Shown here: positions 33,219-57,922 of the stretch, in pieces | Numbering within the stretch: the stretch's first letter is position 1 | Layout of the letters: each line of letters begins with the position of its first letter | Assembly (NCBI GenBank): GCA_025594325.1 | Contig: JANHCV010000007.1 | Span: 930,001-994,000 of the forward strand | Reading direction: 5' to 3' | DNA: 64,000 nucleotides | Origin: Blastocladiella emersonii ATCC 22665 | Taxonomy: Eukaryota > Fungi > Blastocladiomycota | Translations under genes and position numbers: made by a program | Notes under the pieces: generated by a model | Seen by the model: only the letters and a program-made list of their open reading frames with translations | What the model was told of the DNA's origin: nothing | Database searches by the model: none

Positions 33219-33915
33219 GAGTTGAGCGCGCGACGCTTCTTAATCTATCTTGATACCGCGGAACAAAACATAATGTATGAAAAAAAGAAATCAGTCGTCA
33301 TCATCCACCTGCTGACTGCACACGTAGTCGTCATTGTCCTCGTCGTAGTAGTGACGGCGCTTTGCCCTGGCCTTCGGGGCAGCAAACCCTCCGACACTGC
33401 CGATCGCAGCGAGTGAGGGCGGTTGCGGCAGAAGAGGGAAGGGGTCTGCCTCGGCCTCGGCCTTGGGCGACACGACACGCTGGTGCTTGCGCGTGCAGGC
33501 GGGCGGGAGGACCTCCTTGAGCGGTCCGTCGGGCGGGTACTGGGCGGGGCGAGCCACACCGCGCGCCGGTCGGCGAACCGCGGGCAACGAGGGCGGGGTC
33601 AGGGCCGGCGGCGCACCGGACAAGGGCAGGACCGAGGCCGTGGTGGCGGCGGTGAACGAGAAGGCCGGCGCCACGTTGGTCGACGGGCGACGCGGCGCAG
33701 CAGCGGCGGACGACGACGAGGCCGGCGGCACGTTGGTCGAGGGTCGACGCGCCGCAGCGGCCGAGGCCGGCGGGACTGGCGCCACGTTGGTTGACGGGCG
33801 ACGCGGCGCAGCGGCGGTGAACGACGACGAGGCCAGCGCCACGTTGGTGTTGGCCGAGGCCGGCGGCGCACCGGACAAGGGCAGGACCAAGGCCGTGGCA
33901 GCGGCGGACGACGAC
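33000..33915 (+). repeat. Direct repeat copy 1 (JmjC 3' end plus orphan-gene 3' end); copy 2 at 53569-54484
   Basis: Base-for-base match at offset 20569, starting CGCGCCGAGCTGTACGTGG at 33000 and 53569. Confidence 0.92.
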
Positions 33916-35139
33916 GAGGCCGGCGCCACGTTGGTGTTGGCCGAGGCCAGCGGCGCACCGGACAAGGGCAGGACCAAGGCCGTGGCAGTGGTGGACGACG
34001 ACAAGGCCGCCGTGTCGTATCCCTTAAGGGATACAACATGGGCTGACCCACTGCCACTTGGGCTGACCAATTGCTTACCCCGAGCGGTCGGCGGCAGTCA
34101 CTCGGGGTAACCACGTGAGACCCAGTTGCTTACCCCGGGTGGTTAATAATATGTTGGATTCAAATGTCGTGTTCCCTTAGGGAACACGACACGTGGATGG
34201 AGGCTGAAGGCCGAAGCAGGTGGGCGGGAGGGTGGGTGGAAGGGAGGGGGCGAGTGGTTGAGGAGTGAGTCCCTGACCTGACCCCCGAGCCTGTCCCTAA
34301 CCAACCCCTTGGGCTGACCATTGCTTACCCCGAGCGGTTGGCGGCGGCCGGCGAGCGCAGCGAGACGAAGAGCAGCGCAGCTGCGGCTACCCACTGACAA
34401 AGTTCCCTGGTCTGGTCCCTGAGCACGGCTGCAAGTCGATCTGCGAGTTGATCTGCAAGACAAGTGTCACGGTTCAATGATCCGACGGCTCGGGCTGGTG
34501 GCGTGGGCTGGTGGCGCAGTCCCTCATAAGCCGAGCGTTGCCCTCGCTCTCCCTCTCTCTTGTCATTCGTGATACAATCCTTCATTATCCAGCTAGTCAT
34601 TCCTTGTGGCACAAGACCCTCCCCCTCGGCACCTTACACTTTGTATCACGAATGACAAGAGAGAGGGAGAGCGAGGGCAACGCTCGGCTTATGAGGGACT
34701 GCGCCACCAGCCCGCGCCACCAGCCCGAGCCGTCGGATCACTGAACCGTGACAACAAGTCCGAGAGCAGATCCCTGAGCCCGTCCCTGACCAACCACTCA
34801 GGCTGACCATTGCTTACCCCGAGCGGTCGGCGGCGGCCGGCGAGCGCAGCAAGACGAAGAGCAGCGCAGCTGCGGCTACCCACTGACAGAGTTCCCTGGT
34901 CTGGTCCCTGAGCACAGCTGCAAGTCGATCTGTGAGCAGTCCCCGAGCCAGTCCCCGAGCCAGTCCCTGACCACCTGCCGCGAGCGACTGCTATGAAGCC
35001 GTTCACCATAAAAGTTCCACTTTTCGCTCAAAAACAGGTAGGTATCTATATACACTGCCCCTTTTTGAGCGAAAAGTGGAACTTTTCAGAGACAAGAGGT
35101 CAGGGTACGGGGGGTCAGGGCAGGGGAGCGTCTTAGCAG
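33249..35139 (+). repeat. Left arm of 1891-bp inverted repeat
   Basis: Reverse complement of 49896-51786. The ends are colinear (coordinate sums are both 85035), and I spotted five substitutions. Confidence 0.95.
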
Positions 35140-35173
35140 GCAGCGTCTTAGCAGGCAGGAAGGCAGCGTGGCA

Positions 35174-35435
35174 GGTCATGGAGTGTCTGGGGTGCCAGGT
35201 CGGGGGTGCCGGGTCATGGAGGGTCTGGGGTGCCAGGTCTGGGGTGCCGGGTCATGGAGGGTCTGGGGTGCCAGGTCTGGGGTGCCGGGTCATGGAGGGT
35301 CTGGGGTGCCAGGTCTGGGGTGCCGGGTCATGGAGGGTCTGGGGTGGCCGGGTCATGGAGGGTCTGGGGTGCCAGGTCTGGGGTCACGCGGGGGGTCAGG
35401 CGGGGGGTCAGGCGGGGGGTCAGGCGGGGGGTCAC
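35174..35435 (+). repeat. G-rich tandem repeats (about five 38-bp units, then GGGGGGTCAGGC units)
   Basis: GGTCATGGAGGGTCTGGGGTGCCAGGTCTGGGGTGCCG recurs with a 38-bp period from 35174. Confidence 0.88.
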
Positions 35436-35819
35436 GTTGGGGGTGCCAGATCAGGGCCCTGTGCCTGAGGATTTAGCGCTAACCCTGGCCCTATAAGAAC
35501 CCCCCACTCCCCCTGCCCTGAGAGCTGCTCTTTGCCACTCACCATGAAAGCCATGTCACAGATTCACTGCCTCAAGCCCTACTCTGATTGTATAGGCCAT
35601 CTTTGCAATGCGCCCAACGCTCACAGTAGGCTTCTGGTATGGGTGCATGGCCGACATTGCAGGTGGCCACTTCCCTATTCCTTTGGCTTGGGATCTGCTG
35701 AGTCATCTGTATGTGCACAGCAATGACTTGGTTATCCCCTGTCTTGGTCTGGATCATGGGCGCTGCTTGGATTAGCTACCCATACAGTGCTCTTTGATTC
35801 ATTCCTATCTCTCTCTCTC

Positions 35820-35926
35820 TTTGGGTGTGTTGGCGCTGTGTGGTTCGATGAGTCTTTTGGGTGTGTTGGCGCTGTGTGGTTTGATGAGTCTTTTGGGTGT
35901 GTTTGGCGCTGTGTGGTTCGATGAGT
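35820..35926 (+). repeat. Three 36-bp tandem repeats
   Basis: TTTGGGTGTGTTGGCGCTGTGTGGTTCGATGAGTCT-type units, with TTGGG at 35821, 35857 and 35893. Confidence 0.88.
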
Positions 35927-36569
35927 ATTAGCAATGATGCCTGCTCCGTGTTGGAACTCTGATTAGTGGCTGGCCACCATGAAACGAGACCTCCAGCATG
36001 GAGCAGTCTGGGAGGCGCTTGGCCAACGCTTCCTGGACAGGGCGGAGCACCCCTTATTTCTACTTTATGTCAATGTCGTAGTGTGTCCTGTTGCTACGTC
36101 ATGCCAAGTGCGTTGAATGCGTTTGTCAATTTAAACTTTGTTGGACTACTGTAACTATGCAAGGCTGTATCAAAGAGATCGTCCCCCTGCCCAAGCTGCC
36201 ATGCGATCACTATGATGCTCCCAGCTGGGTCCATGACAATGAGCTGCTGTGGGTCCAAGTTGTGTACCCGTGCTGCGGGCACAAGTACACATACCGCAGG
36301 GTAGTCTGAGAGCGACCAGTAAAGGCTTCAAGGTAGCTAACCAAGTTAACTTGAAGGATCTATTCAAAGCAGACAGTGTACACAACCTTGGCACCTGGCA
36401 GGGCCGCGTCGCGGATGGCCGTGTAGTTGGCTGTCGACTGGGGGCCCGGACGGCCAGTCCAAGGGATGCTCGTGGAAGGTGCGCGGGGCGTTGATGCAGT
36501 AGAGCCAGTATTCATTGTCCTGTGTCTTACTATGCCTTTGCAGAAAGAATTTAAAGCACATGTCGTTGC

Positions 36570-36671
36570 TTACTCTACGGCGCGGAATACTTTGCTTGTG
36601 TACCCAACAATGGCCAGGTTGGCTACATGGATCAGGGCGTTGGTGGCAACAAGGAGCGTCTCGAGGATCAT
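36570..36671 (-). CDS. Putative 33-aa hydrophobic viral microprotein
   Basis: MILETLLVATNALIHVANLAIVGYTSKVFRAVE*, preceded by the same TTGTTG-N-TAAAC-ATG motif seen before the other element genes. Confidence 0.4.
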   Translation of the reverse strand: MILETLLVATNALIHVANLAIVGYTSKVFRAVE

Positions 36672-36702
36672 GTTTACAGTACAACAACAATTAAAGTCAA
36701 CG

Positions 36703-37446
36703 TCAGATGAACGCGAGCTCAACGTAGAAGGGTTGGCCAAGAAAGTCGACAGAGCGCAGGTTCTCGTCTACCACGTCAATGTCAACACAGTCAATCTGCT
36801 GGGCCTGTCCCTGCGCGTCAAAGCAAAAGTAGTCACCCATGTGTGGTCGATGCTCGAACCAGCTGCCAAAGGGTTGCGTGACGTGGATGCTACAAAGTAC
36901 GCCGTTGTCTTGTGGGTACGTGCTGTACATGTTGTCCGCGAGCCGGGTGCCAAGGTTGCGCGAGTAGACGTGAAGCAGGTTGATGGGCGAGATGTTGACC
37001 AGCGCCGACGCGTACTGGACCTTGCTGTAGCCATACGCTCCAACAAAGCCCATGTGGACGTTCAGCAACGCCGTCCCTGTTCCAATTGTAAAGTTGACCG
37101 TGTCATTGGCCAGGCGCATCTTCTGGGTAGTCGAGTCAACCTGGACGTCCCATGTGCCCTGCCAGAGGTACGCTGAGGGCGCGTTGTTGAGCAGGCTCTT
37201 GAGCGTGGCCGTGAACGTCTTGACTGTGTAGTTGCCATCAGGGACGGTGATGGTGCCTGGGAACGTCAGCGCGCCATGGCTCTGGGTCAGGTACACTTTG
37301 TTGGCCTTGGAGTTGACCGTGTGCCAGCTGTTGCAGAGGTACGCCGAGTTGACCTTGACGCCACGCACGGACAGGGGTCGTGGTAGGTACAGGATGCCGT
37401 TCTTGAGGTCGCGGCTGCAGATGGTCAGCGTCTTGTACTCGGACAT
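36703..37446 (-). CDS. Minor capsid protein (penton, single jelly-roll) of the Polinton-like virus
   Basis: 247 aa. VNSAYLCNSWHTVNSKANK...ITVPDGNYT resembles PLV/virophage penton motifs, and the C-terminus is DIDVVDEN...VDFLG. It lies next to the MCP. Confidence 0.7.
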   Translation of the reverse strand: MSEYKTLTICSRDLKNGILYLPRPLSVRGVKVNSAYLCNSWHTVNSKANKVYLTQSHGALTFPGTITVPDGNYTVKTFTATLKSLLNNAPSAYLWQGTWDVQVDSTTQKMRLANDTVNFTIGTGTALLNVHMGFVGAYGYSKVQYASALVNISPINLLHVYSRNLGTRLADNMYSTYPQDNGVLCSIHVTQPFGSWFEHRPHMGDYFCFDAQGQAQQIDCVDIDVVDENLRSVDFLGQPFYVELAFI

Positions 37447-37464
37447 TTAAACAAAGACAACAAT

Positions 37465-37731
37465 TTATTGTACAGCTGTCCCCGTGTCGTCAGCGTCTGC
37501 CTCAAAGATCTCGCTCGTCGGTCGGTTGTACCAGGTGTGAATGTCTTGGGCAAGGTCCGCGCCCTTGGTCACCATCTGCGCAATGGAGCTCACAGCGGGG
37601 TTGTGCGACCGCTCAAAGAACTTGGACACGGTCTTGACGCCTTTGAGGACAGTTGGCATGTGTTTGTTGACAAAGGACCCGACCTGGCCGAGCACATTGC
37701 TAAAGTTGGTCCAGAGGTTACGGAAGATCAT
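37465..37731 (-). CDS. 88-aa virion-module protein with an amphipathic N-terminal helix
   Basis: MIFRNLWTNFSNVLGQVGSFVNKHMPTVLKGVKTVSKFF; located between MCP and penton, with its own upstream motif. Confidence 0.6.
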   Translation of the reverse strand: MIFRNLWTNFSNVLGQVGSFVNKHMPTVLKGVKTVSKFFERSHNPAVSSIAQMVTKGADLAQDIHTWYNRPTSEIFEADADDTGTAVQ

Positions 37732-37773
37732 GGCGGGGTTTAACTCTACGCAAGAAAAGAAAGGACAGGGCCG

Positions 37774-38994
37774 TTACTTGTAGATGTTGATCTCGCCGGT
37801 TGGCAGGAACTCGTAGACCACGTCGATGCCAATGAAGGCGTCCACGCGCTGGTTCGGGGCCACGCTTGAAGTCAGGATCACCTGCATGTCCATGGCCTGG
37901 CTCTTGCAAGACTTGTTGCCGCTGACCACGGTGCGACTCGACTCGAGGTCATGGCCGACAACAAAGGTACCCTCGGCCGGCGCGTTGAACTTGTCAACTG
38001 TGAGGCCAGTGCCAATGACGTGGCCATGGAAGGCATTGGTCAGCTCAACGAACGCCTCGGACGCGTAGTCGTCACAGCGGATGGGTCGCTGAGGGAAGAG
38101 TCGGCCGGCCACGCTGAACTGGTACAATGTAATGGTCTTGGCACGAAGGAACGAGTCCTTGGCATTGTCGTTGAGCACGGCATTGTTGCGGAACGACAGC
38201 AGGATGTCTTTCTGTGAGGCCGAGCGGTCCGAGATGTTGAGCGTCGAGTTGGGCACCGAGTAGTTCAGGAAGTGGTGGTTGTAGGTCGTGCCAAAGAGCT
38301 TGAGGCCCTGCTTCTTGAAGGCCGCGTCCATGACCGCGATCTGCTGGTCGTTGAGCTTGATCAGGTCCGAGACAATGCAGACGTCCTTGACTGTGTAGCC
38401 CGGGATGGCATTGTTCTTGACAATGCAGGCGTCACTGCCAGGTGCGAGGGTGAACTCGACGCGGATGCCGCCCGTGTACTTCATTGGGAGGTGCTTCTGG
38501 TTTGCCAGCAGGGCCGACTTGATGGGCAGCATGTACCGGTGCAGCCCGGACGAGACGGCGAACTTGTCCGCGCCGGACGCAAAGTAGCCCTGTGCCACGC
38601 CGAGACACGAGTCCTTGAGGTACTGGGGGACCGTCACGTCGGCCTCGATGCGCTGACGCAGGTTGTAGTACGGGAGCTCTTCGAGTAGGGCACCGGACGC
38701 GCTGTAGATGCGGACACGGTCAATGACGCTGAAGATACCATTGCAGAAAGCGACGTTGGCGTCTGTGGTCTTGGCCAAGAACTGCAGGAAAGTACAGTGC
38801 GTGTCCATCATGTCGTCGCGCGGCGGGAGCAGGACGCTGATGCTGTTGCCAGGAGCAAACTCGGGGCCGCCCTGAGCCGTGAACTGGACGGTCTGGCGCT
38901 CGGCATAGACGGACTCCTTGGGCAGGTTGAACAACATCTTGGGAGGGAGAGCCTTGGACAGGACCTGCGAGAACTGGGCGTTGGTACTGGACAT
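37774..38994 (-). CDS. Major capsid protein (double jelly-roll, PLV type)
   Basis: 406 aa and beta-rich. GPEFAPGNSISVLLP...MDTHCTFLQF...SVIDRVRIY...LLEELPYYNL matches my recollection of PLV MCP N-termini. It is clustered with the penton and ATPase. Confidence 0.8.
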   Translation of the reverse strand: MSSTNAQFSQVLSKALPPKMLFNLPKESVYAERQTVQFTAQGGPEFAPGNSISVLLPPRDDMMDTHCTFLQFLAKTTDANVAFCNGIFSVIDRVRIYSASGALLEELPYYNLRQRIEADVTVPQYLKDSCLGVAQGYFASGADKFAVSSGLHRYMLPIKSALLANQKHLPMKYTGGIRVEFTLAPGSDACIVKNNAIPGYTVKDVCIVSDLIKLNDQQIAVMDAAFKKQGLKLFGTTYNHHFLNYSVPNSTLNISDRSASQKDILLSFRNNAVLNDNAKDSFLRAKTITLYQFSVAGRLFPQRPIRCDDYASEAFVELTNAFHGHVIGTGLTVDKFNAPAEGTFVVGHDLESSRTVVSGNKSCKSQAMDMQVILTSSVAPNQRVDAFIGIDVVYEFLPTGEINIYK

Positions 38995-39034
38995 GGTTTA
39001 GTTTAGGACTCGGCAACAAAAAAAAGTCAAGAGT

Positions 39035-39832
39035 CTACTGCTTCACGATCCACTCGCTGAAGCTGTCTACAAGCCGGTACTTGGGCGGGTTCTGGTTGTT
39101 GACGCCCAGGAAGCGTCACTTCGTGTTGCCAGTACGCGTGTCAAAGAGCTGTTCAATGATGGCCTCAAACTCCTTGAGGTCGAACTGCGACCCAATCTCC
39201 TTGTGCAGCGTCTGGACCTCGGTCTTGTCATAGATTGGGTAGACGACGCTGTAGCTGCAATTGATGCGCAGAGTCTTGGGCAGGGCACACCACCGCTGGA
39301 CGCCAATGATGCAGCTGATCTTCAAGTGCCGCGAGTTGCACAGAAAGTTGGTCAGCGTTTGGTGGCTCAGCAGCTTGAGCCCAAGCACGTTGTCGATGAT
39401 CAGCAGCTGGTCCTGGAGCGCCTTCTTGCCAGACTCTTCGAATGTCTTGGTCAGGTCCTGGCGCATCTTGAGCAGGGTCGGGATGAACTGCTCGGGGTCC
39501 GTGACGATGCAGCTTGGCTTGATCTTGAGCCGGTCCGGGTCGCGCTCCTGGGGGTCCAGCACGTTGCGCTCCTTCTTGGGCGGTCGCAGGATCGGTTGAC
39601 TGGCAATGTACTCGTACTTGTCGTCGGCGTGGATCGTCGGGTTAAAGACCCAGATGTTGTCGAACTGGCCCTTGTAAAAGTGCGGGAAGCAGACCATGTT
39701 TGCAATCAGCGTCGACTTGCCCTGACCCTTGGCGCCAATGACGTTCATGGTGAACGGGTGCTTGGGGATCGGCAGCGGCTCGCCGTCGTCGTTGCGCGTA
39801 AAGCCGTTGTCAATGGCAACAATGTCATACAT
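39035..39832 (-). pseudogene. A32/FtsK-like DNA packaging ATPase with a premature TGA at 39116-39118
   Basis: Walker A GAKGQGKS, Walker B LLIIDN (D>N), and RHLKIS...VQRW..LPKTLRIN. Reading through the TGA continues RFLGVNNQNPPKYRLVDSFSEWIVKQ to TAG at 39035-39037. Confidence 0.85.
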
Positions 39833-39858
39833 TTAAAGACTGCCAACAAAAAAGGGCG

Positions 39859-41574
39859 TCAGTCCCAGCCGAGGTCAAGCACAATGCCGCTGCGCCTTGG
39901 GGTCTCGCGGACCTGCTTGACGGGCCGCTCAGGGATCTTCTGGTGACGCTGGATCTTGGGCGCTGTCAGCCCGCTACCCGCTGCCCGCTTGTCTGTGAAC
40001 AGCTTCGCGTCGGTCGGCTTCTTGTAGCCCAGTTGCTTGAGGATCTGTTCGAGGAGCATGTCGGTCTTCTTAGAACTACCGCCAGAATTGTTTTGCGCGG
40101 CCAGCTCCCTGATCATGGCCTCGAGGCCGCTTGTGTCGGCAGGCTGGACAATGACTTGGGGTGCAGGGATCGTGTCCAGCTTGGACCCAAGGTCTTGGAG
40201 CGTCTTGGTCATGGCCTCGTTGCTCTGGGTCTGCCCTTGGATCGCGCCCTGGACGCCGCTTGCAAGCTGGTTCATGAGCACCTGCTGGTTGCTGAGCGCC
40301 GAGGACATGCCCGTGGCAATCTCAGACACAAGCGCGCGGTTGCCAGCGTCAATCTGGCGGACAAAGTCGTTGCGTTCGGCTCGGAGCGTGTCCACAATCC
40401 CGGACGCGAGGTTGGCAAATGCGTCCATGGCCAGTCCCTGAGCGGCCGCCGACTGCTCGATGAGCGCCTGGTACGCCTGGTACTGCATGACCTGGGACCT
40501 GGCAAACTGCGAGGCAATGAGCTCGAGCGCGGCCATGACGTTCGGGTCATTGTTGTACTGGACCAGGATCTGCTGCCGCATGTCCACGTTCTGCTCGTAG
40601 TAGTTGTTCTCGTACTGGGTGATGAACTGCCGCATGTCGACGTTCTGCGTGTTCTGCTGCGTGTAGCTGTTGTACACGAACTGGTTAAACTGTTGAAAGT
40701 TCTGGACAACGTCGACCTCCATGTCGTCCGTGGTTGTCAGCGCCCGCTCGGGGTTGTAGACCTGCAAGTCCTTGGAGCCCTCGATCATGCGTGCCTTGTC
40801 CATGGCCGGGTGGACGTGACCCTCGTTGTACACGCCTTGCCGCTGTGCCACGTCCGGGCCATAGCTTGGTGGCATGACCACGAGGTCGCGGGTGCCATCG
40901 TCAAGCCTTGGGGGCGGGTCGTTGCCGCCATCATTGTCATTCTGGATCAGGTACTGGCCGGGGATCATGGCGCCGTACTCGTCAATGTCTTGACCAACAT
41001 AGTCGCCGGCCTCGACCGGGTACTGCTCGGGCATGACTGGCCGGACGGGCACGGGGAGCAAGTGGTCCGGTACAGCGTCCTCGTCAATGACGTCCAGGGC
41101 TTGCGAGATCTCTTCTGCCAGCTCGTCGCGCTCCTCTTCGCTGCTGCCCCTGTCGCTGTCCGTGGCCGACTCGGGGGCCTCTGGTCTGGGGCTTGCCGCT
41201 GGTGGAGCGACTGGGACTCGAGTGACCTTGCCCGTTGCCTGGTGCTCTTCCCACGCTTTAAGCGTGTCTTGGACGTGCTCCTGGAGGTCCTTGACCTCGT
41301 ACCCAGTGACGCCGTCCTGGTGCTTGAGGTAGAACAGCGAGTCGCCTCATTTGCGGCCAAAGTCGTTGGCATAGCTCTCGGGCGTCACCTTGTAGTCAAA
41401 GGCAAGGATGTAAGGCACCCAGACGTCGAGGAGCTCTTTGGCATTGGGGAACGTGTACTCGCGGCCGTCAATGGTTGCCTTGATCTTCTGCCCTGCAAGG
41501 CGCTTGGCCGTGATGCGCCCACCAGTTGCCTTGGTCACTCTTGCAAGTAGATCTGGTACTGTTCTTTGGCCCAT
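39859..41574 (-). pseudogene. ~570-aa uncharacterised viral protein with one in-frame TGA (41347-41349)
   Basis: ORF 41347-41595 and ORF 39859-41061 are in the same frame. The intervening codons are stop-free and coding-like (GDSLFYLKHQDG...). ATG at 41574 has the element's upstream motif. Confidence 0.7.
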
Positions 41575-41651
41575 GATGGTTACTGTATGGACCAAAAATA
41601 AAACGTCCCCATGTCGGTACCTTTTTCCCCGTGGCAGGTGCCTTTTGTCCC

Positions 41652-41903
41652 TCAGACGGTGCTATTTGCCCCCTGGTCCCGGCGCTTGGCGTTGAGTGCC
41701 TTGTAGATCCGGATCTTGACCCGCTCTGCCCGCGCTGCCTCGTCGTCAACGTGCGTGTACCAGTTGGCCTTGCGGTCGCGCTTCCGTAGCCACTTGGCCT
41801 TGTCCTCGTCACTCTTGCTGTACCAGCTGCTTGGCATGGGCATGGTCCCGGCGAGGTGCTCCCGCCACTCGTCCAGGCTCAGGTCATGGTCGCTGGAAAT
41901 CAT
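41652..41903 (-). CDS. 83-aa basic hypothetical viral protein
   Basis: K/R-rich ORF transcribed divergently from the fibre gene across a shared TTTAAA. Confidence 0.5.
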   Translation of the reverse strand: MISSDHDLSLDEWREHLAGTMPMPSSWYSKSDEDKAKWLRKRDRKANWYTHVDDEAARAERVKIRIYKALNAKRRDQGANSTV

Positions 41904-41923
41904 TCTGTTGCTTGAGTTTAAAC

Positions 41924-43783
41924 ATGGTCAAGAATATCTTTAACGTCTCAAGTACTGCGTCTCCAACCGTGTCTACCACGGGGGTCCCGGACGTGTCCAA
42001 GGCCTACGTTGACGCGGCCATCAGTGCCGTGTACGCCACGGTTGGCGCACCTGTTGCTGGCCCTGGCGTGGCAGTCTCAGGGACCACTGTGTCGGCCAAG
42101 GTCGACAACCAGACCCTTGGCGTGGGCGCAGCAGGGCTCTATGTCAAGTTGGTTGGCACGGCACAGCTGCTCCCGGCCAGCGTCACGGCCAACAAGGTCG
42201 CCACGATTACAGCAGGGCAGGTCACAGGCAAGCTCGTTGATGCTCAGCTGGACACTGTGTCTGCGTCCAAGGTTGTGGGCGTACTCAGTGCGTCCAACCT
42301 CCCAGCCGTTGGGACCTCGGTCCTGGCAGACGGCTCAGTGACTGATGCCAAGGTCGCGTCCGTGTCTGGGTCCAAGCTCGTGGCAGGCACAGTCGGCACG
42401 GCGGCTCTCATCGACCTGGCAGTCACAGATGCCAAGGTCGCGTCTGTGTCTGGGTCCAAGCTCGTTGCAGGGACTATTGGGACGGGAGCCCTGGCAGACG
42501 GTGCCGTATCCAACGCCAAGGTGGCAGCTGGCATCGACGGGTCCAAGCTGGCAGCGGGCACAGTCGGCTCCCTGGTCCTGGCAGACGCGGCCGTGACCAA
42601 CGCCAAGCTGGCAACTGGCATTGATGGGGGCAAGCTCAACGTCGGGTCCATTCGAACAGCCCACCTGGCAGCAGGCGCAGTCACGGACGCCAAGGTCGCA
42701 GACATGTCGGCGGTCAAGCTCACTGGGATCCTTGACCCTGCCCGCATCGCCAACGGGACCCTGACCAACGCCAAGCTGGCATCTGGCATTGACTCGGCCA
42801 AGCTTGCAGGGACCATTGACCTGGCACGACTCCCCGACGTCTCGGCCAAGGTCACGGCGGTGAGCGCAGCCTCAGTCGCTGGCACGCTCCCCCAGTCCAC
42901 CCTTGGGCTTGGCGCTGCCTTTGCCTTTGCAAATACGACGGACAGTTTGACATCAAGCACTGGAGCAGTCACCATTGCTGGTGGTCTTGGAGTTGGCAAG
43001 CAACTGACTGTGCCCAACGTCCTGGTCCGGAATGCCACAAGCGCGAACCTTGTCTTTGACTCGGCTGCCAATACATTGACGTACGTCGACTTTAAGCAGG
43101 CAGGCGTACTGCGAAGCAACCTGGCATGCACAGCGGCGGGTAACATTGAGATTGCGTCTGTGACCACAGGCGGGGTCTCCCTTGTGGCACGTGGCGGCAA
43201 TGTGGTTGTGGGCTTGGCGACGCTTGGCACAGAAAGGTTCCGCGTCAATGGCACTGGTCGCTTCACAGGGCAGCTCACCCTTGACCTCGCTCCAGTGGCA
43301 GGCACCGACGCAGCAAACAAGGCGTACGTTGACTTGCAGTCCGGCACGACCCGGTACGTCGCTCAGGCCGAGCACCACTCTACAAACGGAGTGACCACGG
43401 GCGGCAAGATCATTGGCGGCACAGCATCGACGGGCCCGGCCACCTTTGCGTTCCAGTCCACGGTGGGCGCGTTCACGTCTGTGATCAATGGATGCGTCAA
43501 ACCCCCTGTCAGTGGCTACTACCTCGTCCATGCAAAGGGCTACTACGCAAACGGCGCGCTCCCTGGAGCCCACACTGTGAACTTTGCGCTGTACAATATG
43601 ACAGACATGATTGCAGTGTCGCTTGTCACCGGGTGCCGCGCTGAAGGCAATGTCCAGTTCCTTCAGTTCTCAAGCATTGAGTACCTTGACGCGGCCAAGA
43701 GCTACTCTTTCATCTGGATCCCGTCGGTCGCAGTTGCCAACGACTGCCAGGTCATCATTCAAAGCCACTGGACCCTGCTCTAA
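41924..43783 (+). CDS. Fibre / receptor-binding-like virion protein
   Basis: ATG at 41924 after GTTTAAAC. It has repeated VTDAKVASVSGSKL / VTNAKLATGIDGGKL units, KAYVD motifs near both ends of the shaft, and a beta-rich C-terminal head. Confidence 0.65.
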   Translation: MVKNIFNVSSTASPTVSTTGVPDVSKAYVDAAISAVYATVGAPVAGPGVAVSGTTVSAKVDNQTLGVGAAGLYVKLVGTAQLLPASVTANKVATITAGQVTGKLVDAQLDTVSASKVVGVLSASNLPAVGTSVLADGSVTDAKVASVSGSKLVAGTVGTAALIDLAVTDAKVASVSGSKLVAGTIGTGALADGAVSNAKVAAGIDGSKLAAGTVGSLVLADAAVTNAKLATGIDGGKLNVGSIRTAHLAAGAVTDAKVADMSAVKLTGILDPARIANGTLTNAKLASGIDSAKLAGTIDLARLPDVSAKVTAVSAASVAGTLPQSTLGLGAAFAFANTTDSLTSSTGAVTIAGGLGVGKQLTVPNVLVRNATSANLVFDSAANTLTYVDFKQAGVLRSNLACTAAGNIEIASVTTGGVSLVARGGNVVVGLATLGTERFRVNGTGRFTGQLTLDLAPVAGTDAANKAYVDLQSGTTRYVAQAEHHSTNGVTTGGKIIGGTASTGPATFAFQSTVGAFTSVINGCVKPPVSGYYLVHAKGYYANGALPGAHTVNFALYNMTDMIAVSLVTGCRAEGNVQFLQFSSIEYLDAAKSYSFIWIPSVAVANDCQVIIQSHWTLL

Positions 43784-44892
43784 AGCCCGCGGTCCCACTT
43801 TTCTTGGACTCGGACTGGGACGCGCCTGACCTGGGTCGAGGGCTCCCTTGGCGTGACTGGGGTGCGCGCAACAGGGAGCCTTGGAAGACTCGGGGCCATG
43901 CGTGGCCTTGTCGGCGGGTCCTGGGTCGCTGTGACTGGCTGGACGTCGCTGCGTGGATAGAAGCCCTTGAGGCCTTGGACCTTGTAGCTCGGATTGCTCA
44001 CGCCCGACCCCTTGCGCACAACCTGGACCTGGCTCACAGTTGTTGACCAGACCGGCTTCCCCTTGGCCTCCATGGCAGTCTTGTACGGCTCGCGGACTCG
44101 GACCTGGGTCCCTACCTTCAACAACGCGCTCAGAGGGTCGCCCTCGGGCTTGCCCTTGGCAGCTCGGATCTCCTTGAGCTCTTGCTTGGCCGTTTTGCGG
44201 GGCATGTCATGGAACGCGTTGGGTGCCTTGCTTGTGGCCCTCGACTTGCTGCTGTTGATCACAGATTCAATGGTCTCGAGGTGCTTGGGCCAGTCGTTGT
44301 TGCCCGGGATGGACAGCCACGGTGTGAGCATCCGGCGGATGGTCCCGTTCATGCGTTCAACAACACCTTGACCGTATGGCACTCCTGCCTTGCCCTTGAT
44401 GTGCTTGGCCTCGGTCCCGGCCTCTATGCCAAAGAACTCGGTCCCATTGTCCGTCTGGATCGTGGCAGGTGCAAGGCTGTGCTTGGCGACCACGCTGGAC
44501 CATGCTTCCCGCGTCTTGTCCTTGGTCTTGATGGGTTGGAGGAACACACGCCTGCTCGCGAGGTCAACGCAGGTCAAAATGTACCTGAAGCCCTTGTACA
44601 TACCGTTTTCGCCCATGTCAATGAGGTCAAGCTGGAAGTTGCGACTGGGGCTTGTTGAGTTGATGCTTCGAATGTCTCGGCGCTTCTGAGGTGCGCGCTT
44701 GTACTGCTGCCACACGGACTGTTCGCCGAGCCATCTCTCAAGCTGGGCGCGGTAGATGTGCTTCCCTGTGTTCTCTCTGGACACAATGTCAAAGAGCCGA
44801 CGGATGCCAACACCTACGTGGCCGCGCTTGTAGTACAAGTCTGTCAGGAATGCTTGCTGTGCGTCTGTGAGCGGCTCTTCGTGGGCATACAT
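43780..44892 (-). CDS. Retroviral-like (rve) DDE integrase, Polinton type
   Basis: FQLDLID, YILTCVDLASR, IQTDNGTEF and GVVERMNGTIRRML give an intact D-D-E triad. Confidence 0.92.
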   Translation of the reverse strand: MYAHEEPLTDAQQAFLTDLYYKRGHVGVGIRRLFDIVSRENTGKHIYRAQLERWLGEQSVWQQYKRAPQKRRDIRSINSTSPSRNFQLDLIDMGENGMYKGFRYILTCVDLASRRVFLQPIKTKDKTREAWSSVVAKHSLAPATIQTDNGTEFFGIEAGTEAKHIKGKAGVPYGQGVVERMNGTIRRMLTPWLSIPGNNDWPKHLETIESVINSSKSRATSKAPNAFHDMPRKTAKQELKEIRAAKGKPEGDPLSALLKVGTQVRVREPYKTAMEAKGKPVWSTTVSQVQVVRKGSGVSNPSYKVQGLKGFYPRSDVQPVTATQDPPTRPRMAPSLPRLPVARTPVTPREPSTQVRRVPVRVQEKWDRGL

Positions 44893-44920
44893 TGTATTAA
44901 CAAAGGCGGAGACAAAAGGA

Positions 44921-46057
44921 TTACTGAGGCGTCATGTAGTAGGTCAGCGCAACGGGGATGCTGTGACCCATCTCGTGCGCGCGTTTGGCAATAGCTTGCT
45001 GCGCAGCAAAGTTCTCACTGGTGGAGATACGGCGGATCACTGCCACGCCGCCATCCTCAAAGCCGACCGTCTTTGCAGCCCAACTAATCAACGTACACCA
45101 GGTGCTGCTAACCCTCTTGCAGAGCGTGGTGTCCTTGAGCTCCTCGAGGGTGTAGTTGTTGAAGACAAAGTCATGACCTTCGGCGAGACGCTGGGCGAGG
45201 ATACGCTTGAGAGCGGCGGCGACCTTGGGCTCACTAACTGTGTGTGAGAAGTTGTAGCCACAGCCCTCTGTCTTGACAATGACATCGCCGGCCAGAATCT
45301 GGGTCTCTGGGTCGTAGTACGGGTACCCAGTGGTTGGCTTCGTGGTCAGGAACGCAGGGTCGGAGCGCACCGCACTCACAACTTGGAGGTACAGACGCAG
45401 GAGCCCTGTGCCCGAGCCCTTTGCATCAACAATAGCGGCGCAAATGGCGTCACGGCTCAGGAGCGCACCAGACTCGAGTTCCTTGCGCGCGTCGCAGAAG
45501 TCAGCAGCGTCCTGCTTCTTGGCCTCTGTGTACTTGGCCCCGAGTTCAGTCCACCTGTTCCAGGTGCAGTACTTGGTCAGGGCCTTGAGCGTCTCGACCT
45601 GCAGCCCCTGCTTGCCCTTGGACGCGCGGTACGCTGCCACAGCTTTGGACACGGCGTCAACGTCTTCAATGTCCATGCCTGACTTGGCAAAGGCACAGAG
45701 CACGCGGGATGTCTTGGCCTTGTCCGTGTCGCTCAGCTCAACCAGTTCCCCGTGCTTGTTCTGAACACGCGCGTTGACGCACGCCGCAATGGATTCCTCG
45801 GTCATCTGCGCGTACTTGACCTGGGGGTCAGTGTCCATGGGCTCGCCAGACTCGTCGACGGGGGTGTGATTGGGACGGTGATTGCAGTTACGTGACACTG
45901 CAGCCAGCGCGGCGAGGCTGGTCTCAACTCCCTTGAGCCGCTCGTCAAAGGATGCCAGCAGCGGCTTGATACCATCGAGCACTTGGTGCACTACATCGGT
46001 GGCAAAGTGCTGAGCGAGGGCAATGGCGACCTGGGAGGCAAGAGAGTCAAGCGCCAT
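44921..46057 (-). CDS. Tyrosine recombinase-family protein
   Basis: AVRSD (putative first Arg), then C-terminal IRRIS...AHEMGHS...LTYY, matching the R...RxxR...GH...Y catalytic pattern. Confidence 0.65.
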   Translation of the reverse strand: MALDSLASQVAIALAQHFATDVVHQVLDGIKPLLASFDERLKGVETSLAALAAVSRNCNHRPNHTPVDESGEPMDTDPQVKYAQMTEESIAACVNARVQNKHGELVELSDTDKAKTSRVLCAFAKSGMDIEDVDAVSKAVAAYRASKGKQGLQVETLKALTKYCTWNRWTELGAKYTEAKKQDAADFCDARKELESGALLSRDAICAAIVDAKGSGTGLLRLYLQVVSAVRSDPAFLTTKPTTGYPYYDPETQILAGDVIVKTEGCGYNFSHTVSEPKVAAALKRILAQRLAEGHDFVFNNYTLEELKDTTLCKRVSSTWCTLISWAAKTVGFEDGGVAVIRRISTSENFAAQQAIAKRAHEMGHSIPVALTYYMTPQ

Positions 46058-46181
46058 GGTTTACTGACTGTCAACAAAAAGGCTCCATGGGCTCAAGTGC
46101 GTTTGAACGCAACGTTCTTTTTTCTGGGTAGCTGGGCCTGGGTCAGGGTCATGATGGTGGCAAGTCATGGACCGTGGGAGG

Positions 46182-46613
46182 GCCCAGGTCACGGTTCAAG
46201 GATCGTGACCTGAGACGCGATTGGCTCCCAAGTTGGGCTCCTGGGGGGTCTGTGACTTTGCCCTCAGTCGCTGCCCAGGTCACGGTTTGAGCGGGCCGTG
46301 ACCTCGGCCTCTGCTGGCTCCCAAGTTGGGGTTCTGGGGGTCCGTGACTTTGCCCTCAGTCGCTGCCCAGGTCACGGTTCAAGGATCGTGACCTGAGACG
46401 CGATTGGCTCCCAAGTTGGGCTCCTGGGGGGTCCGTGACTTTGCCCTCAGTCGCTGCCCAGGTCACAGTTCAAGGATTGTGACCTGAGACGCGATTGGCT
46501 CCCAAGTCGGGAGCATGGGGGGTCTGTGACTTTGCCCTCAGTCGCTGCCCAGGTCACGGTTCAAGGATCGTGACCTGAGACGCGATTGGCTCCCAAGTTG
46601 GGCTCATGGGGGA
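46182..46613. repeat. Array of ~4.7 91/92-bp units, each containing a 9-bp-stem palindrome
   Basis: Units start at 46182, 46273, 46365, 46456 and 46547. The core is CAGGTCACG-N10-CGTGACCTG. Confidence 0.92.
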
Positions 46614-46786
46614 GGTCGTGTCTGGGTCAGGGTCAGGTCACGCAAGGGCAGCTGGGCCTGGGTCAGGACAGTGGCAAGTCATGGGCCATGCCAACAAGGG
46701 CTCCCGGGTCACAGCCATTAGCGCTAAATCCTGCGCGTTTAAACGCACCTGCCCTGTCACCTTTTCTGTCGCCTCATCATAACAAG

Positions 46787-49700
46787 ATGCCTTGCAAGCA
46801 GGTTCCTGGTACAGCTGGCACCGCCTTTGGTCTTGAGTGGTTCCACGGCAAGGACGGCGGCGGCAGTGACATGGGCCCTCAGCGCAAGCTCCTCTCTGAG
46901 CTGCAAGACAACGAGACGGTCATCAAGCGCCTTGTTGACAAGGGCGTCGACAACCATGGCGAACCCAAGGCGGCGCACTATTTTGCCAAGGTCAAGACGG
47001 TGGGCCTGGCTGGGCTCCTCAACAAGAACCGCTGCATCCAGGAGATGGTCCACCCCGAGCGCCTGTCCAAGGTCTACTTTGACATTGACTGCCTGGGCAA
47101 CAACAAGGACGTGACGCTGGACGTCATCAAGAAGGTCATCCTGGCCCAGTTCCCCGGCGCCAACCTCCAGGTCTGCGGCTACGAGACGGACCTCAAAAAG
47201 TCGTGGCACATTGTCCTCAGCAACTACACGGCCACGCTCAAGGACATGTCGTTCCTGAAGCTGTTCTGCAGCCACCCCGACCACGTCAAGCTCGGCTTTG
47301 ATGCCAGCGTGTACAGCAAGCACCGCTTCATGAAGTGCATCAACCAGTCCAAGCCCAAGAAGACACCCGGCACGTTCAAGGCAGGGAACAAGGACCGCCT
47401 GTCCAAGCATCTGATCCAGTACGACTTTGACCCCAACTGCGTGCCGATCTCGGACCTGTCCTTTGTCAAGTTTGTGTCTGCCGAGGCCAAGGCAGCGCGG
47501 GCCAAGCGCCGCAAGGGTCGCTTTGACTACGACCTCGACATCCCCGAGTTCAAGGACGTGCAGATCGACCCTGACTTCTTCTACTATGACGCCACGCCAC
47601 TCGAGATCCTCCACAACCTCCCTGTCAGCCCTGAGAACGCGTTCCACAACAACGTGACCTGGCTGATCATGACCTGGGCCATGCGCAAGGGTGTCACCTT
47701 TGAACAGTTCTGGGCGTGGACGTCCCAGCAGGACAACTCGGCTCAGCGCTTTGCCAAGTACCAGCAGCGGTGGGGCGAGATTGCCAGCAACTGCGACTAC
47801 CAGGTGCCGGACAAGTTCATCAAGGCCATCTTCTACAAGCGGTTCCGGGACGCGTTCAAGTCCAAGGCCATGATCAAGTTTGAGCAGTCGCTCCAGGTCC
47901 CCGCCAACGTGACCGTCCCCAACCAGTTCCTGAGCTGCAACGACATTACCGAGGCCAAGTTCAACGTGCTGGCCACGGGCATGGGCTCCAACAAGACGGG
48001 CGCTGTTTGCGACTACATTGCCAAGTACCCAGACGCTCGAGTGGTCTGGATTACACCTCACATCACCCTGGCCCACAACACCGAGGGTTGAGCCCGCGAA
48101 CAGAAGCTTGGCTTTGTCAACTACCGCAGCATCAAGGACAAGAAGACCATGGGCGAGCACGCGCAACTCATTGTCTCGCCGTGCTCGCTGCACTACTTGA
48201 CCAAGCCCTACGACATTGTTGTGGTGGACGAGTCAGAGACGGTCCTCAAGATGTTCCAAGACGCCAAGCTCCACACGACCACCATTAGCAACAACCTCGA
48301 GGCCAACCTCAAGGCCTTCAAGACGCTGTGTGAGCACAAGGGCAGCAAGGGTATCTTCATGGACGCGTTCATCACAAACCTGACCATGGACGTCCTCCGC
48401 TCCTTTACTGTCAAGCACAACATCCTGACTGCAACCCATGGTAAGATCAAGGTGATCACAAACACGCTGGGCAAGACGTTTGTGCTGCGCACAATGAGCC
48501 TCATCACCCATGACAAGAACGAGGACAAGTCCGCCAAAGACATCATGGAGAGCAACATCATTGCCGACCTCAAGGCCAACAAGAAGCTCTACCTGTTCAT
48601 CCCGCGGCCAATCAGCAAGTCGACCAAGTGGTCGGCGCAGACCTTTGGCGAGTACCTTGAGCGGGTCTTTGCCAAGGAGAAGTGGAAGATTGGCAAGCAG
48701 ATCAAGCTGTACCACGGCGACCGCCCCAACCACGAGGACAAGGAACTTGCAGACCCTGACTCTGTGTGGGGCGACAATACGGTCCGTATAGTCATTGCCA
48801 ACCTCAAGATCACCGTTGGCGTCAACTTCTCAACAAAGAACAAGTTTGACAAGGTGTACGCGCGCTACGAGTCCTGGGTCCCTGCCCGCGACTTCTTCCA
48901 AGCAATCTACCGCGTGCGCTACCCCAAGGACAATGAGATCGTGTTCATGATCAGCCGTGGTTGCCGCAGCATGTTCATGAACAAGTCCCAGGTCATTAAC
49001 TCGGACTTGGTCGGCAAACTTCACCAGGCCATTGTCAAGAACACGGATCTCGAGAACGAGATGGCCGCTGTGACCTCGTGCCTCAAGGTCTTTGACGCCT
49101 TCCGCAAGGTTGCCAACATTGTCATGGACAACTCCCCCGAGTACTACTACATGGCGCACCCCGAGATTGAGGATGTCATGACATCGGGCTGGTCCTTTGA
49201 CTAGGCAAACGTCCAGCTTCCATCCAAGGAGACCCTGCACGACCACTGCAAGGGTACACTCAAGGACCCGGACTGGACCATCTGCCTCTCCGTCCGCAAG
49301 GCCTTCTTCATCTGCAAGTTCAAGGGTCTGAGTGAGGACAACATGGAGGCCATCTGGGACGACAACGCCGAGCGCTTCATGGAACGTATCCAGTACTTTT
49401 ACACCAAGGACAAGGCCCACGTCCTGCACAAGCTCCTTGACCACAACAGCATGGACCTCCGCACGTCCGAGGAGTTCAACGTCCAGTCCACCATCCCCAC
49501 CACGTTTGAAGCAGACATCTGCAAGTACTTCAAGAAGCTTTCGTCAAACAAGAAGTGTGGCCCAGCAATTGTACTGATCACCATGCTCGACACCTACTTC
49601 AACAAGTGCCTTGCTGCGCCAGACAAGGACAACTGCCAGGTCACAATTCGTGGCAAGTAGTACACTAACCTGAAGTGGACGGAAGACATCAACTACTTTG

Positions 49701-49801
49701 TCATGTACAAGACCTGGACCACTGCCCCGGCTGAGTCGGCGCCGTTTGTCCTGGAGCTGGACCTGGACGAGGTCTACAACGAGCTCATCAACGAGCCCTA
49801 A
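46787..49801 (+). pseudogene. AEP primase(-polymerase) + PriCT-like + UL9/origin-binding-protein-like SF2 helicase fusion, with three in-frame stops
   Basis: AEP motifs YFDID, KSWHIV and FDASVY..HRFMKCINQSK; helicase motifs TGMGSNKT, IVVVDESE and ITVGVNF. ORFs 46586-48091, 48149-49204 and 49343-49660 share one frame, and the coding-like reading continues to TAA at 49799-49801. Confidence 0.82.
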
Positions 49802-49895
49802 GACAGTCCACGACCTGCCACAATGCCTGCTAAGACGCTCCCCTGCCCTGACCCCCCCGTACCCTGACCCTTTGTCTTTGATTAATACATTGATG

Positions 49896-51786
49896 CTGCT
49901 AAGACGCTCCCCTGCCCTGACCCCCCGTACCCTGACCTCTTGTCTCTGAAAAGTTCCACTTTTCGCTCAAAAAGGGGCAGTGTATATAGATACCTACCTG
50001 TTTTTGAGCGAAAAGTGGAACTTTTACGGTGAACGGCTTCATAGCAGTCGCTCGCGGCAGGTGGTCAGGGACTGGCTCGGGGACTGGCTCGGGGACTGCT
50101 CACAGATCGACTTGCAGCTGTGCTCAGGGACCAGACCAGGGAACTCTGTCAGTGGGTAGCCGCAGCTGCGCTGCTCTTCGTCTTGCTGCGCTCGCCGGCC
50201 GCCGCCGACCGCTCGGGGTAAGCAATGGTCAGCCTGAGTGGTTGGTCAGGGACGGGCTCAGGGATCTGCTCTCGGACTTGTTGTCACGGTTCAGTGATCC
50301 GACAGCTCGGGCTGGTGGCGCGGGCTGGTGGCGCAGTCCCTCATAAGCCGAGCGTTGCCCTCGCTCTCCCTCTCTCTTGTCATTCGTGATACAAAGTGTA
50401 AGGTGCCGAGGGGGAGGGTCTTGTGCCACAAGGAATGACTAGCTGGATAATGAAGGATTGTATCACGAATGACAAGAGAGAGGGAGAGCGAGGGCAACGC
50501 TCGGCTTATGAGGGACTGCGCCACCAGCCCACGCCACCAGCCCGAGCCGTCGGATCACTGAACCGTGACACTTGTCTTGCAGATCAACTCGCAGATCGAC
50601 TTGCAGCCGTGCTCAGGGACCAGACCAGGGAACTTTGTCAGTGGGTAGCCGCAGCTGCGCTGCTCTTCGTCTCGCTGCGCTCGCCGGCCGCCGCCAACCG
50701 CTCGGGGTAAGCAATGGTCAGCCCAAGGGGTTGGTTAGGGACAGGCTCGGGGGTCAGGTCAGGGACTCACTCCTCAACCACTCGCCCCCTCCCTTCCACC
50801 CACCCTCCCGCCCACCTGCTTCGGCCTTCAGCCTCCATCCACGTGTCGTGTTCCCTAAGGGAACACGACATTTGAATCCAACATATTATTAACCACCCGG
50901 GGTAAGCAACTGGGTCTCACGTGGTTACCCCGAGTGACTGCCGCCGACCGCTCGGGGTAAGCAATTGGTCAGCCCAAGTGGCAGTGGGTCAGCCCATGTT
51001 GTATCCCTTAAGGGATACGACACGGCGGCCTTGTCGTCGTCCACCACTGCCACGGCCTTGGTCCTGCCCTTGTCCGGTGCGCCGCTGGCCTCGGCCAACA
51101 CCAACGTGGCGCCGGCCTCGTCGTCGTCCGCCGCTGCCACGGCCTCGGTCCTGCCCTTGTCCGGTGCGCCGCCGGCCTCGGCCAACACCAACGTGGCGCT
51201 GGCCTCGTCGTCGTTCACCGCCGCTGCGCCGCGTCGCCCGTCAACCAACGTGGCGCCAGTCCCGCCGGCCTCGGCCGCTGCGGCGCGTCGACCCTCGACC
51301 AACGTGCCGCCGGCCTCGTCGTCGTCCGCCGCTGCTGCGCCGCGTCGCCCGTCGACCAACGTGGCGCCGGCCTTCTCGTTCACCGCCGCCACCACGGCCT
51401 CGGTCCTGCCCTTGTCCGGTGCGCCGCCGGCCCTGACCCCGCCCTCGTTGCCCGCGGTTCGCCGACCGGCGCGCGGTGTGGCTCGCCCCGCCCAGTACCC
51501 GCCCGACGGACCGCTCAAGGAGGTCCTCCCGCCCGCCTGCACGCGCAAGCACCAGCGTGTCGTGTCGCCCAAGGCCGAGGCCGAGGCAGACCCCTTCCCT
51601 CTTCTGCCGCAACCGCCCTCACTCGCTGCGATCGGCAGTGTCAGAGGGTTTGCTGCCCCGAAGGCCAGGGCAAAGCGCCGTCACTACTACGACGAGGACA
51701 ATGACGACTACGTGTGCAGTCAGCAGGTGGATGATGACGACTGATTTCTTTTTTTCATACATTATGTTTTGTTCCGCGGTATCAAG
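49896..51786 (-). repeat. Right arm of 1891-bp inverted repeat
   Basis: Reverse complement of 33249-35139; mirror-image ORFs are visible in the ORF track. Confidence 0.95.
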
Positions 51787-51975
51787 CGCGCGACGCTGTG
51801 TATTATTTTTCCCCCGAATATGGATCGGCATTTTTCCGACGCGCCGCAGCCGCCGCGAGAGCAACGGGGGGCGCCGCCTCTCCCTTCAAAACGCGCCGCG
51901 TCGTTCATGGCCCGCTCTCCCTCCCCCCAACCCCTCCTTGATTCCAAACGCCATCAACCACCACCACTACCGACC

Positions 51976-53506: not shown

Positions 53507-53568
53507 AGTTTGGGATCGTGTGTGGGGTGTGTCGTGTACGAGAGAGCGAGTGTGGCAGAGGAGAACAA

Positions 53569-57886: not shown

Positions 57887-57922
<36 letters not shown>

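Follow-up and report, generated by a model that had tools for sequence, protein, structure and literature searches.

A damaged Polinton-like virus integrated in the genome of the zoosporic fungus Blastocladiella emersonii

An intronless cluster of genes between long inverted repeats in Blastocladiella emersonii ATCC 22665 raises the question of what kind of invading DNA it represents, whether this copy could still function and whether its arrival can be dated. The window analyzed here is a stretch of 64,000 nt (assembly GCA_025594325.1, contig JANHCV010000007.1, positions 930,001-994,000), and all coordinates are window-based. An earlier reading of these letters (the original prediction) had described the cluster as a near-complete and recently inserted endogenous Polinton-like virus (PLV). 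We conclude that it is very probably a disabled integrated copy from a multi-copy PLV family of B. emersonii, that its own rve integrase likely placed it there, that its CpG sites are likely decaying through host methylation and that its right end was likely altered by template switching.

The integrated viral element spans 34013-51022 (17,010 bp), within the 15-30 kb range of PLVs with terminal inverted repeats (TIRs). Its termini are TG at 34013 and CA at 51022. Self-comparison of the window delimited a left TIR of 1127 bp (34013-35139, plus strand) and a right TIR of the same length (49896-51022, minus strand), which differ at 3 positions (99.7% identity). The boundary at 51022/51023 is fixed by contigs from other copies, which leave the element there with unlike flanks in all four short-read runs. 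Each TIR opens with a 26-bp near-perfect palindrome (34013-34038 on the left). More palindromes lie inside the left TIR, together with an internal inverted repeat of 113 bp, and a DNA fold of the first 248 nt of the TIR beat 200 of 200 shuffles (z -3.1). The interior consists of 10 open reading frames (ORFs), all intronless, and the GC content of the element is ~58%, compared with 66-70% in the flanks. Neighboring genes are eukaryotic and encode an axonemal dynein heavy chain, a PHD/JmjC protein, an aldehyde dehydrogenase and eIF3j. The intronless cluster, its inverted ends and its joining to host DNA were thus as predicted, and they agree with the capsid folds described below in placing an endogenous PLV in a zoosporic fungus.

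The open frame at 37774-38994 (minus strand, 406 aa) was recognized as the major capsid protein (MCP) from its predicted structure. The sequence had no match in Pfam, PHROG or among PDB sequences, an MCP profile also found none in PDB, and a Pfam search of the MCP and 82 relatives (83 aligned sequences) assigned 0 of 83 to any family, Sputnik_MCP included. A model built with the 83-sequence alignment (pLDDT 93.5) matched the PBCV-1 capsid in Foldseek (E 6.5e-18) and superposed on it with a VIA Z of 28.7 and a root-mean-square deviation of 2.9 over 346 residues. The VIA Z was 20.6 for Sputnik and 19.3 for mavirus, and 7.6 for the first non-viral row. The model and both comparisons agree on a predicted double jelly-roll (DJR), the fold that had been expected for this protein. 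The penton or minor capsid protein (36703-37446, minus strand, 247 aa, open) had no Pfam or PHROG match. Its model, folded with 13 relatives (pLDDT 73), has the anticipated single jelly-roll and found the mavirus penton as its best Foldseek match (E 2.2e-9), with VIA Z of 11.4 for the mavirus penton, 10.9 for Sputnik and 16.0 for a PBCV-1 capsid chain. An A32-like packaging ATPase (39035-39832, minus strand; Pfam Pox_A32 E 1.2e-11) and an open fibre-like protein of 619 aa with 28-residue repeats (41924-43783, plus strand; Pfam Phage_Tail_Tip E 6.2e-9, PHROG tail-fibre families E ~1e-5) belong to the same cluster. Three further ORFs lie on the minus strand, namely an 88-aa ORF that is kept in sister copies according to ORF calls and sister gene models (37465-37731), a Q/N-rich, coiled-coil-like ORF of 571 codons translated by reading through one in-frame stop (39859-41574), and an ORF call for a basic protein of 83 aa (41652-41903).

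The largest replication gene (46787-49801, plus strand, 1004 codons, read through with X across three stops) encodes a predicted archaeo-eukaryotic primase (AEP) fused to a UL9-like superfamily-2 (SF2) helicase. We take the AEP label from the architecture of its relatives and from a motif of AEP type. Homologues carry PF02399 (Herpes_ori_bp), and the profile of the primase-helicase had no match among PDB sequences. The same AEP plus UL9-like SF2 architecture is described for mimivirus R8 and for pF1055L of African swine fever virus (ASFV) (PMC11253617). An open rve integrase of 370 aa with a D-D-E triad (43780-44892, minus strand) matched Pfam rve at E 9e-6, below the curated cut-off, and aligned with the integrase cores of HTLV-2 and foamy virus at E 8e-5 to 2e-4, acidic triad included. 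In its C-terminal region (43890-43897) there is a compensating pair of one-base indels relative to most copies, which may be an alignment effect. The open frame at 44921-46057 (minus strand, 378 aa) ends with a C-terminal R...GHS...Y arrangement. A profile of 33 PLV and virophage recombinases from related environmental contigs, run among the 10 element proteins, matched its residues 283-375 (E 1.6e-5), and in the ESM Atlas the protein scored 0.94-0.95 to Preplasmiviricota clusters, one of which has PF00589 in 16% of members; a direct Pfam or PHROG match was not obtained. These matches make it likely, but do not prove, that the protein is an OLV11-type tyrosine recombinase (YR). With the YR counted as likely, every member of the predicted gene set (MCP, penton, A32 ATPase, fibre, rve, YR and primase-helicase) is present.

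Between the divergent YR and primase-helicase genes, a tandem-repeat search found 4.7 copies of a 91-bp unit (46182-46612). The array and the TIRs have a 10-mer in common, and 8 of its 8 exact matches in the window fall inside the element; at one mismatch the 10-mer was not enriched window-wide (13 matches, a number reached by 19 of 100 shuffles). On this basis the array is a candidate replication origin. The strict TTTTSTYG motif was not enriched in the window. A T-tract followed by TAA lies within 30 nt upstream of the start in 9 of 10 main ORFs and in 13 of 445 interior ATGs; this motif, which was defined post hoc after inspection, is a candidate viral promoter element.

No DNA_pol_B match indicative of a DNA polymerase B of the protein-primed type (pPolB) was detected in the element ORFs or in six frames of a 1.2-kb stretch that has short ORFs only (35480-36700), where a six-frame Pfam search found no match. 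The element has no uncharacterised ORF long enough for pPolB, and its 1004-codon gene is AEP/SF2. Pfam searches of all ORFs and of the same six frames likewise yielded no Ulp1/adenain-like protease, the 571-, 88- and 83-codon ORFs being covered at the level of sequence. Because neither pPolB nor a protease was found, the element is a PLV and not a Polinton/Maverick by the definitions in PMC4642659 and PMC11161782, and the label Maverick that the original prediction had also applied was dropped. In the broad sense of PLV, the element has a DJR MCP, a penton, an A32 ATPase (damaged in this copy), appropriate size and TIRs, a primase-helicase replacing pPolB, and YR and rve genes. Of the features that define Polintons, it has rve and lacks a detectable pPolB. 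It also differs from virophages, as its MCP has no Sputnik_MCP match whereas the MCPs of virophage contigs L002 and L010 match that family strongly.

The window copy is one of many. MCP homologues at 82-96% identity all came from B. emersonii, where sister loci are known from protein records only. These records form at least 23 locus groups, spread over 12 megabase-size contigs. MCP and primase-helicase occur together in 10 of the groups, and at least 17 locus tags in addition to that of the window bear an MCP. The locus count is a floor, as 11 of 26 members of the largest cluster are not among the loci counted. The MCPs fall into three subfamilies (95-99% identity within the main one, 79-87% between subfamilies) in a tree built without named references and read without its support labels, and at least 10 full-length 406-aa MCPs are spread across the three. 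Gap-free primase-helicases of 1003-1006 aa occur in two sisters from two subfamilies (P0198 and P0202). One B. emersonii gene model equals the window primase-helicase wherever the two align, its predicted splicing having removed the three stops. More generally, the host annotation fuses or splices viral ORFs, joining the 88-aa ORF with the penton or the MCP with the penton and turning stops into false introns. Adjacent records of 303 and 406 aa were considered as tandem MCPs and rejected, the 303-aa models being the 88-aa ORF fused to the penton.

Outside B. emersonii, primase-helicases 45-49% identical to that of the element are present in Allomyces arbusculus, A. javanicus and A. macrogynus. 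In a FastTree phylogeny of 43 primase-helicases, which included at most 30 environmental sequences of at least 800 aa each, B. emersonii and the three Allomyces species formed one clade (support 1.0). Two of the Allomyces genes (P0191 and P0192) lie on contigs of PLV size (14,956 and 14,600 bp), possibly collapsed multi-copy or free viral genomes. Alignment-based scans with the primase-helicase returned 26 + 80 = 106 environmental loci on viral and metagenome contigs, some of them duplicates; a single-sequence primase-helicase scan returned no locus, nor did MCP-based scans of the viral and metagenome contigs. A related MCP stood beside the primase-helicase at 11 of the 106 loci and a virophage MCP at 2 or more. 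Virophage-type contigs L002, L007 and L010, which have Pfam matches to Sputnik MCP or minor capsid protein, carry an AEP/UL9-like primase-helicase too. As judged from these gene neighborhoods, this predicted type of replicase is common to PLVs and virophages.

Compared with known systems, the element resembles PLVs (class Aquintoviricetes; PMC4642659) in its 15-30 kb size class, TIRs, MCP, minor capsid protein and ATPase, as well as in its OLV11-like recombinase, its primase-helicase fusion and the failure to find protease or pPolB. It departs from them in having rve, rare in PLVs, besides the recombinase, in a UL9-like SF2 helicase where PLVs usually have SF1 or SF3, and in an MCP that fits no Pfam family and is at most 41% identical to metagenomic proteins. 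With Polintons (Polintoviricetes) it shares rve, TIRs, DJR MCP, penton, ATPase and high copy number, and with Tlr1 the pairing of rve with a helicase replacing pPolB (PMC11161782). Unlike both, it has a recombinase and no detected pPolB or Ulp1-like protease, and its helicase is not the SF1 type of Tlr1. The primase-helicases of mimivirus (R8), ASFV (pF1055L) and mriyaviruses are alike in combining AEP with a UL9-related SF2 helicase (PMC11253617), but here the gene sits in a 17-kb integrated element, and the nearest environmental versions of the gene (23-30% identity) lie on contigs of PLV and virophage type. Endogenous mavirus-like virophages (EMALEs) are similar in their many integrated copies, TIRs, rve, microbial eukaryote hosts and a penton fold to which that of the element is closest, whereas the MCP of the element lies outside the virophage Pfam families and fits PBCV-1 (Z 28.7) better than Sputnik or mavirus (20.6 and 19.3), and no protease or pPolB was found. 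The PLVs of the zoosporic fungi Spizellomyces punctatus and Allomyces macrogynus (PMC7805220) have in common with it the host type, integration and MCP, ATPase and helicase genes, but were reported as single elements or scattered genes, in contrast to at least 23 loci in three subfamilies in B. emersonii. The element also lacks the chitinase gene present in 52% of the S. punctatus PLV group. No Allomyces MCP was among the named MCP matches; a common capsid lineage with the Allomyces loci is thus not established.

The MCP, penton, fibre, rve and YR frames are open, as had been claimed. The copy nevertheless has five premature stops: the primase-helicase carries three, and the 571-codon ORF (codon 76) and the ATPase have one each. 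The primase-helicase stops are in frame at codons 435, 806 and 958, columns at which the sisters are open. The ATPase stop at codon 239 removes a C-terminal stretch alignable with relatives, and in its Walker B motif DN takes the place of the DD seen in 14 of 14 environmental relatives. The description "near-complete" therefore holds for the gene cluster and its ends but not for the replication and packaging genes, which are broken here while sisters have gap-free primase-helicases. Judged from its reading frames, the window copy would be unable to replicate or package on its own.

The damage has a distinct context. At 30 of 38 interior sites the window has A or T where other copies have G or C, and at 27 of the 30 the context is CpG; the sites come from a list of the 40 best-supported of 682 differences and comprise its interior rows. 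Among six sister MCPs, 23 of 29 minority substitutions were CpG transitions, compared with 120 of 2679 possible changes. The observed/expected (o/e) CpG ratio is 0.80 in the element and 1.27-1.32 in the flanks. Because CpG changes dominate and the CpG ratio is lowered, the decay likely proceeded through deamination of CpG methylated by the host. Mutation of the repeat-induced (RIP) type at CpA was rejected as the main process, as 27 of 30 transitions were at CpG. Of two Allomyces strains, one is reported to have CpG-methylated viral DNA (PMC13533422). We found no relevant literature on methylation in Blastocladiella, and nothing on 5-methylcytosine in Blastocladiomycota in the available text of PMC11258239.

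We found no target-site duplication (TSD) of 4-8 bp at the locus, because the left flank stands inverted on the right. Self-comparison and contig depth resolved the arrangement. The 764 bp to the left (33249-34012, minus strand) are the 3′ part of a 431-aa gene, termed gene B, up to the insertion point; an inverted copy (51023-51786, plus strand) takes the place of the original right flank. It is followed, within the rearrangement, by a single-copy segment with the Pfam-identified aldehyde dehydrogenase gene (51787-53568, plus strand) and by a direct copy (53569-54500, plus strand) of 33000-33931, comprising the 3′ end of the JmjC gene, a spacer and the 3′ part of gene B, which runs on into an uninterrupted gene B. 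The aldehyde dehydrogenase gene may be native or moved in. Contig depths in run X1 were 110-118 for single-copy parts, 229-264 for duplicated parts and the element-flank joint, and 355-379 for the triplicated part. Junction 51786 was the only one formally bridged, by contigs of runs X2 and X3, and the three flank copies differ from each other at single bases. The two- and threefold flank rearrangement is real.

This arrangement bears on the age of the insertion. Divergence between the TIRs is 0.27%, compared with 1.3% between the interior and high-depth X2 contigs (2.0% over 25 listed pieces; binomial P ~3e-4). Four CpG changes in the 81 bp adjoining the element occur in both flank copies and not in the intact gene B; as this stretch is an additional tandem unit, they may have arisen earlier. 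These comparisons suggest that, once some decay had occurred, template switching at the TIRs likely copied the left end over the right one. Because the inverted identity extends into flanking DNA, the 99.7% TIR identity is unable to date the insertion. The claim of a recent insertion was accordingly given up: TIR identity likely reflects later copying of one end, and the element is young in evolutionary terms but undatable in this way.

The rearranged host DNA includes a second likely mobile unit (53818-58155), consisting of gene B (53860-55155, minus strand, 431 aa), a divergent Fanzor/TnpB-like ORF of 893 codons (55245-57926, plus strand) and a structured 3′ stretch. The ORF matched Pfam Cas12f1-like_TNB above cut-off (E 2.7e-7) and the TnpB model weakly (E 0.004); it has visible RuvC- and zinc-finger-type motifs and no match to solved Fanzors. 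The 229-nt 3′ stretch folds at z -3.7 and is a candidate guide RNA. The ends of the unit are marked by a 5-bp inverted repeat flanked on each side by TAT; at near identity the unit is apparently single-copy, and it is not CpG-depleted (o/e 1.34). Fanzors are known from Allomyces (PMC3627910). The inverted viral flank ends exactly at the candidate end of this unit (33249/51786), and the virus therefore likely entered this Fanzor-bearing unit, whose activity may have contributed to the rearrangement. An 11-bp direct repeat lies around the composite of virus and inverted flank (33227-33237, 51787-51797 and 53796-53806) and could be a target duplication or a templated insert.

Additional features include G-rich tandem arrays of 38-bp and 12-bp units inside the left end (35174-35449; tandem-repeat search), and short Cys-rich and hydrophobic ORFs with a 36-bp tandem repeat at 35480-36700. 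The dynein heavy chain is a single open frame of 3821 codons (12638-24103, minus strand), which suits a flagellated host.

The gene content permits a tentative scheme for the virus. On balance, we favor a model that starts from a linear genome, either excised or arriving from outside. The primase-helicase would replicate it by binding to the 91-bp repeats and the TIR boxes, priming synthesis and borrowing a host or helper polymerase; the binding step is modelled on UL9-type proteins at repeated origin boxes. That the ATPase of the ancestral virus would have packaged the genome into an icosahedral capsid without protease maturation is a good deal more probable, and rve would probably have joined the TG...CA ends to host DNA. 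The YR might, more doubtfully, serve in circularisation, resolution of terminal palindromes or a second integration route. The window copy would be moved or packaged only with proteins from intact sisters.

Several other explanations were weighed. A possible but doubtful refinement of our interpretation is that the element is a virophage-like satellite, silent until a Mycodnaviridae-type giant virus supplies transcription and DNA polymerase. The element has no detected DNA polymerase gene, the post hoc T-tract plus TAA motif precedes 9 of 10 main ORFs, and its type of primase-helicase also stands beside Sputnik-type MCPs (L002 and L010); in addition, Mycodnaviridae are integrated in Allomyces (PMC13533422) and several PLVs depend on giant viruses (10.64898/2026.06.19.733378). 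However, we identified no giant-virus gene in the window, the words "emersonii" and "Blastocladiella" are absent from the main text of the Mycodnaviridae paper (PMC13533422) as far as available, and at least one PLV isolate is an autonomous nuclear lytic virus (10.64898/2026.06.19.733378). A genome-only rve transposon with capsid genes as passengers, no longer making particles, would fit the many near-identical copies with their star-like spread of CpG-type substitutions, and gaps in several sister gene models suggest stops spliced out by the gene caller. Ten full-length 406-aa MCPs in subfamilies 13-21% apart point instead to long capsid selection and repeated invasion, and primase-helicases are gap-free in two subfamilies (P0198 and P0202), so that we regard the transposon explanation as unlikely.

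The way in which the element entered and was rearranged allows further alternatives. Integration by the YR at the terminal palindromes, rather than by rve, is suggested by the open YR-like gene, the 26-bp palindrome, the missing TSD and the frequency of such recombinases in PLVs (PMC4642659). The overwritten right flank accounts for the missing TSD, however. Linear form, TG...CA ends and unlike flanks at every copy suit a DDE integrase, and integration by the YR appears quite improbable. It is also rather unlikely that machinery of the Fanzor element, rather than template switching alone, moved or resolved a composite bounded by two left-end copies. The inverted copy does halt exactly at the candidate end (33249/51786), and the 11-bp direct repeat brackets the composite (33227-33237 and 51787-51797). 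On the other hand, the unit ends in a 5-bp inverted repeat and exists in one copy, no transposase was identified, 11 bp separate the left repeat from the element end, and three copies of an 11-mer arose in 4 of 100 shuffles, with one of the three belonging to the duplication. Identical inverted flanks are typical of misassembly at long inverted repeats, but an assembly artefact or contaminating viral contig is extremely improbable here, given the 1x/2x/3x pattern repeated by short-read contig depths, the bridging of 51786, single-base differences among the three flank copies and homologous loci on 12 megabase-size contigs. Depth and bridging thus agree with the assembly on the point that the original prediction had named as able to overturn it.

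Several observations weigh against our preferred interpretation of a disabled, rve-inserted and CpG-decaying PLV copy. The case consists of sequence, contigs and models. The recombinase call combines a C-terminal profile match with a language-model look-alike, and, as the locus has no TSD, the action of rve follows from the ends and the catalytic triad only. An rve homologue was found at 0 of 106 environmental loci, which makes the gene set a mosaic. The sites assessed for CpG context were a selected list, and CpG depletion is uneven, with an o/e of 1.0 in the MCP gene. As for the assembly, the contig over the end of the element (50994-51076) reaches 29 letters into the virus, the contigs at 51786 (X1) and 53568 have 30 letters where the bar was 31, and the four short-read runs all come from one sample.

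The emphasis of the original prediction on fungal novelty was overstated. Bellas and Sommaruga (2021, PMC7805220) had already described a PLV integrated in Spizellomyces punctatus, together with Allomyces macrogynus genes for MCP, ATPase and helicase; their supplement has no Allomyces entry. A 2026 preprint places ATPases of numerous chytrid genomes among Aquintoviruses (10.64898/2026.06.19.733378), with neither Blastocladiella nor Allomyces named in its available text. A large protist survey left out fungi (PMC10120064). According to a 2026 survey, fungi have yielded no isolate of a class I dsDNA virus, and viral regions seldom exceed 1% of a fungal genome (10.1101/2025.04.19.649669). The available text of the B. 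emersonii genome paper (PMC9730499) does not mention transposons and has "viral" in a reference only. No description of a B. emersonii PLV family was found in the open literature, and the family of >20 copies appears to be undescribed; the closed supplements of 10.1101/2025.04.19.649669 and 10.64898/2026.06.19.733378 may list its loci.

The single window copy is a damaged fossil, and its value lies in the family, the Blastocladiales-wide replicase lineage and the CpG signature. At full length throughout, the 23 or more loci would make up as much as ~1% of the 34-Mb genome. Gene callers fuse and splice viral ORFs, and therefore dozens of "hypothetical" gene models of this fungal host are viral. 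The locus also shows that TIR identity can mislead when insertions are dated. Because the host is cultured, fungal PLV particles, CpG silencing of invading DNA in Blastocladiomycota and an interaction between PLVs and Mycodnaviridae become testable. There is a small chance that some sisters are intact and inducible. They would then be a small dsDNA virus that lies latent, belongs to a PLV lineage specific to Blastocladiales, is restrained by CpG methylation and possibly acts as a virophage of fungal giant viruses. If true, this would provide the first route to Polinton-like virions from a fungus, in a host that is a cultured model fungus.

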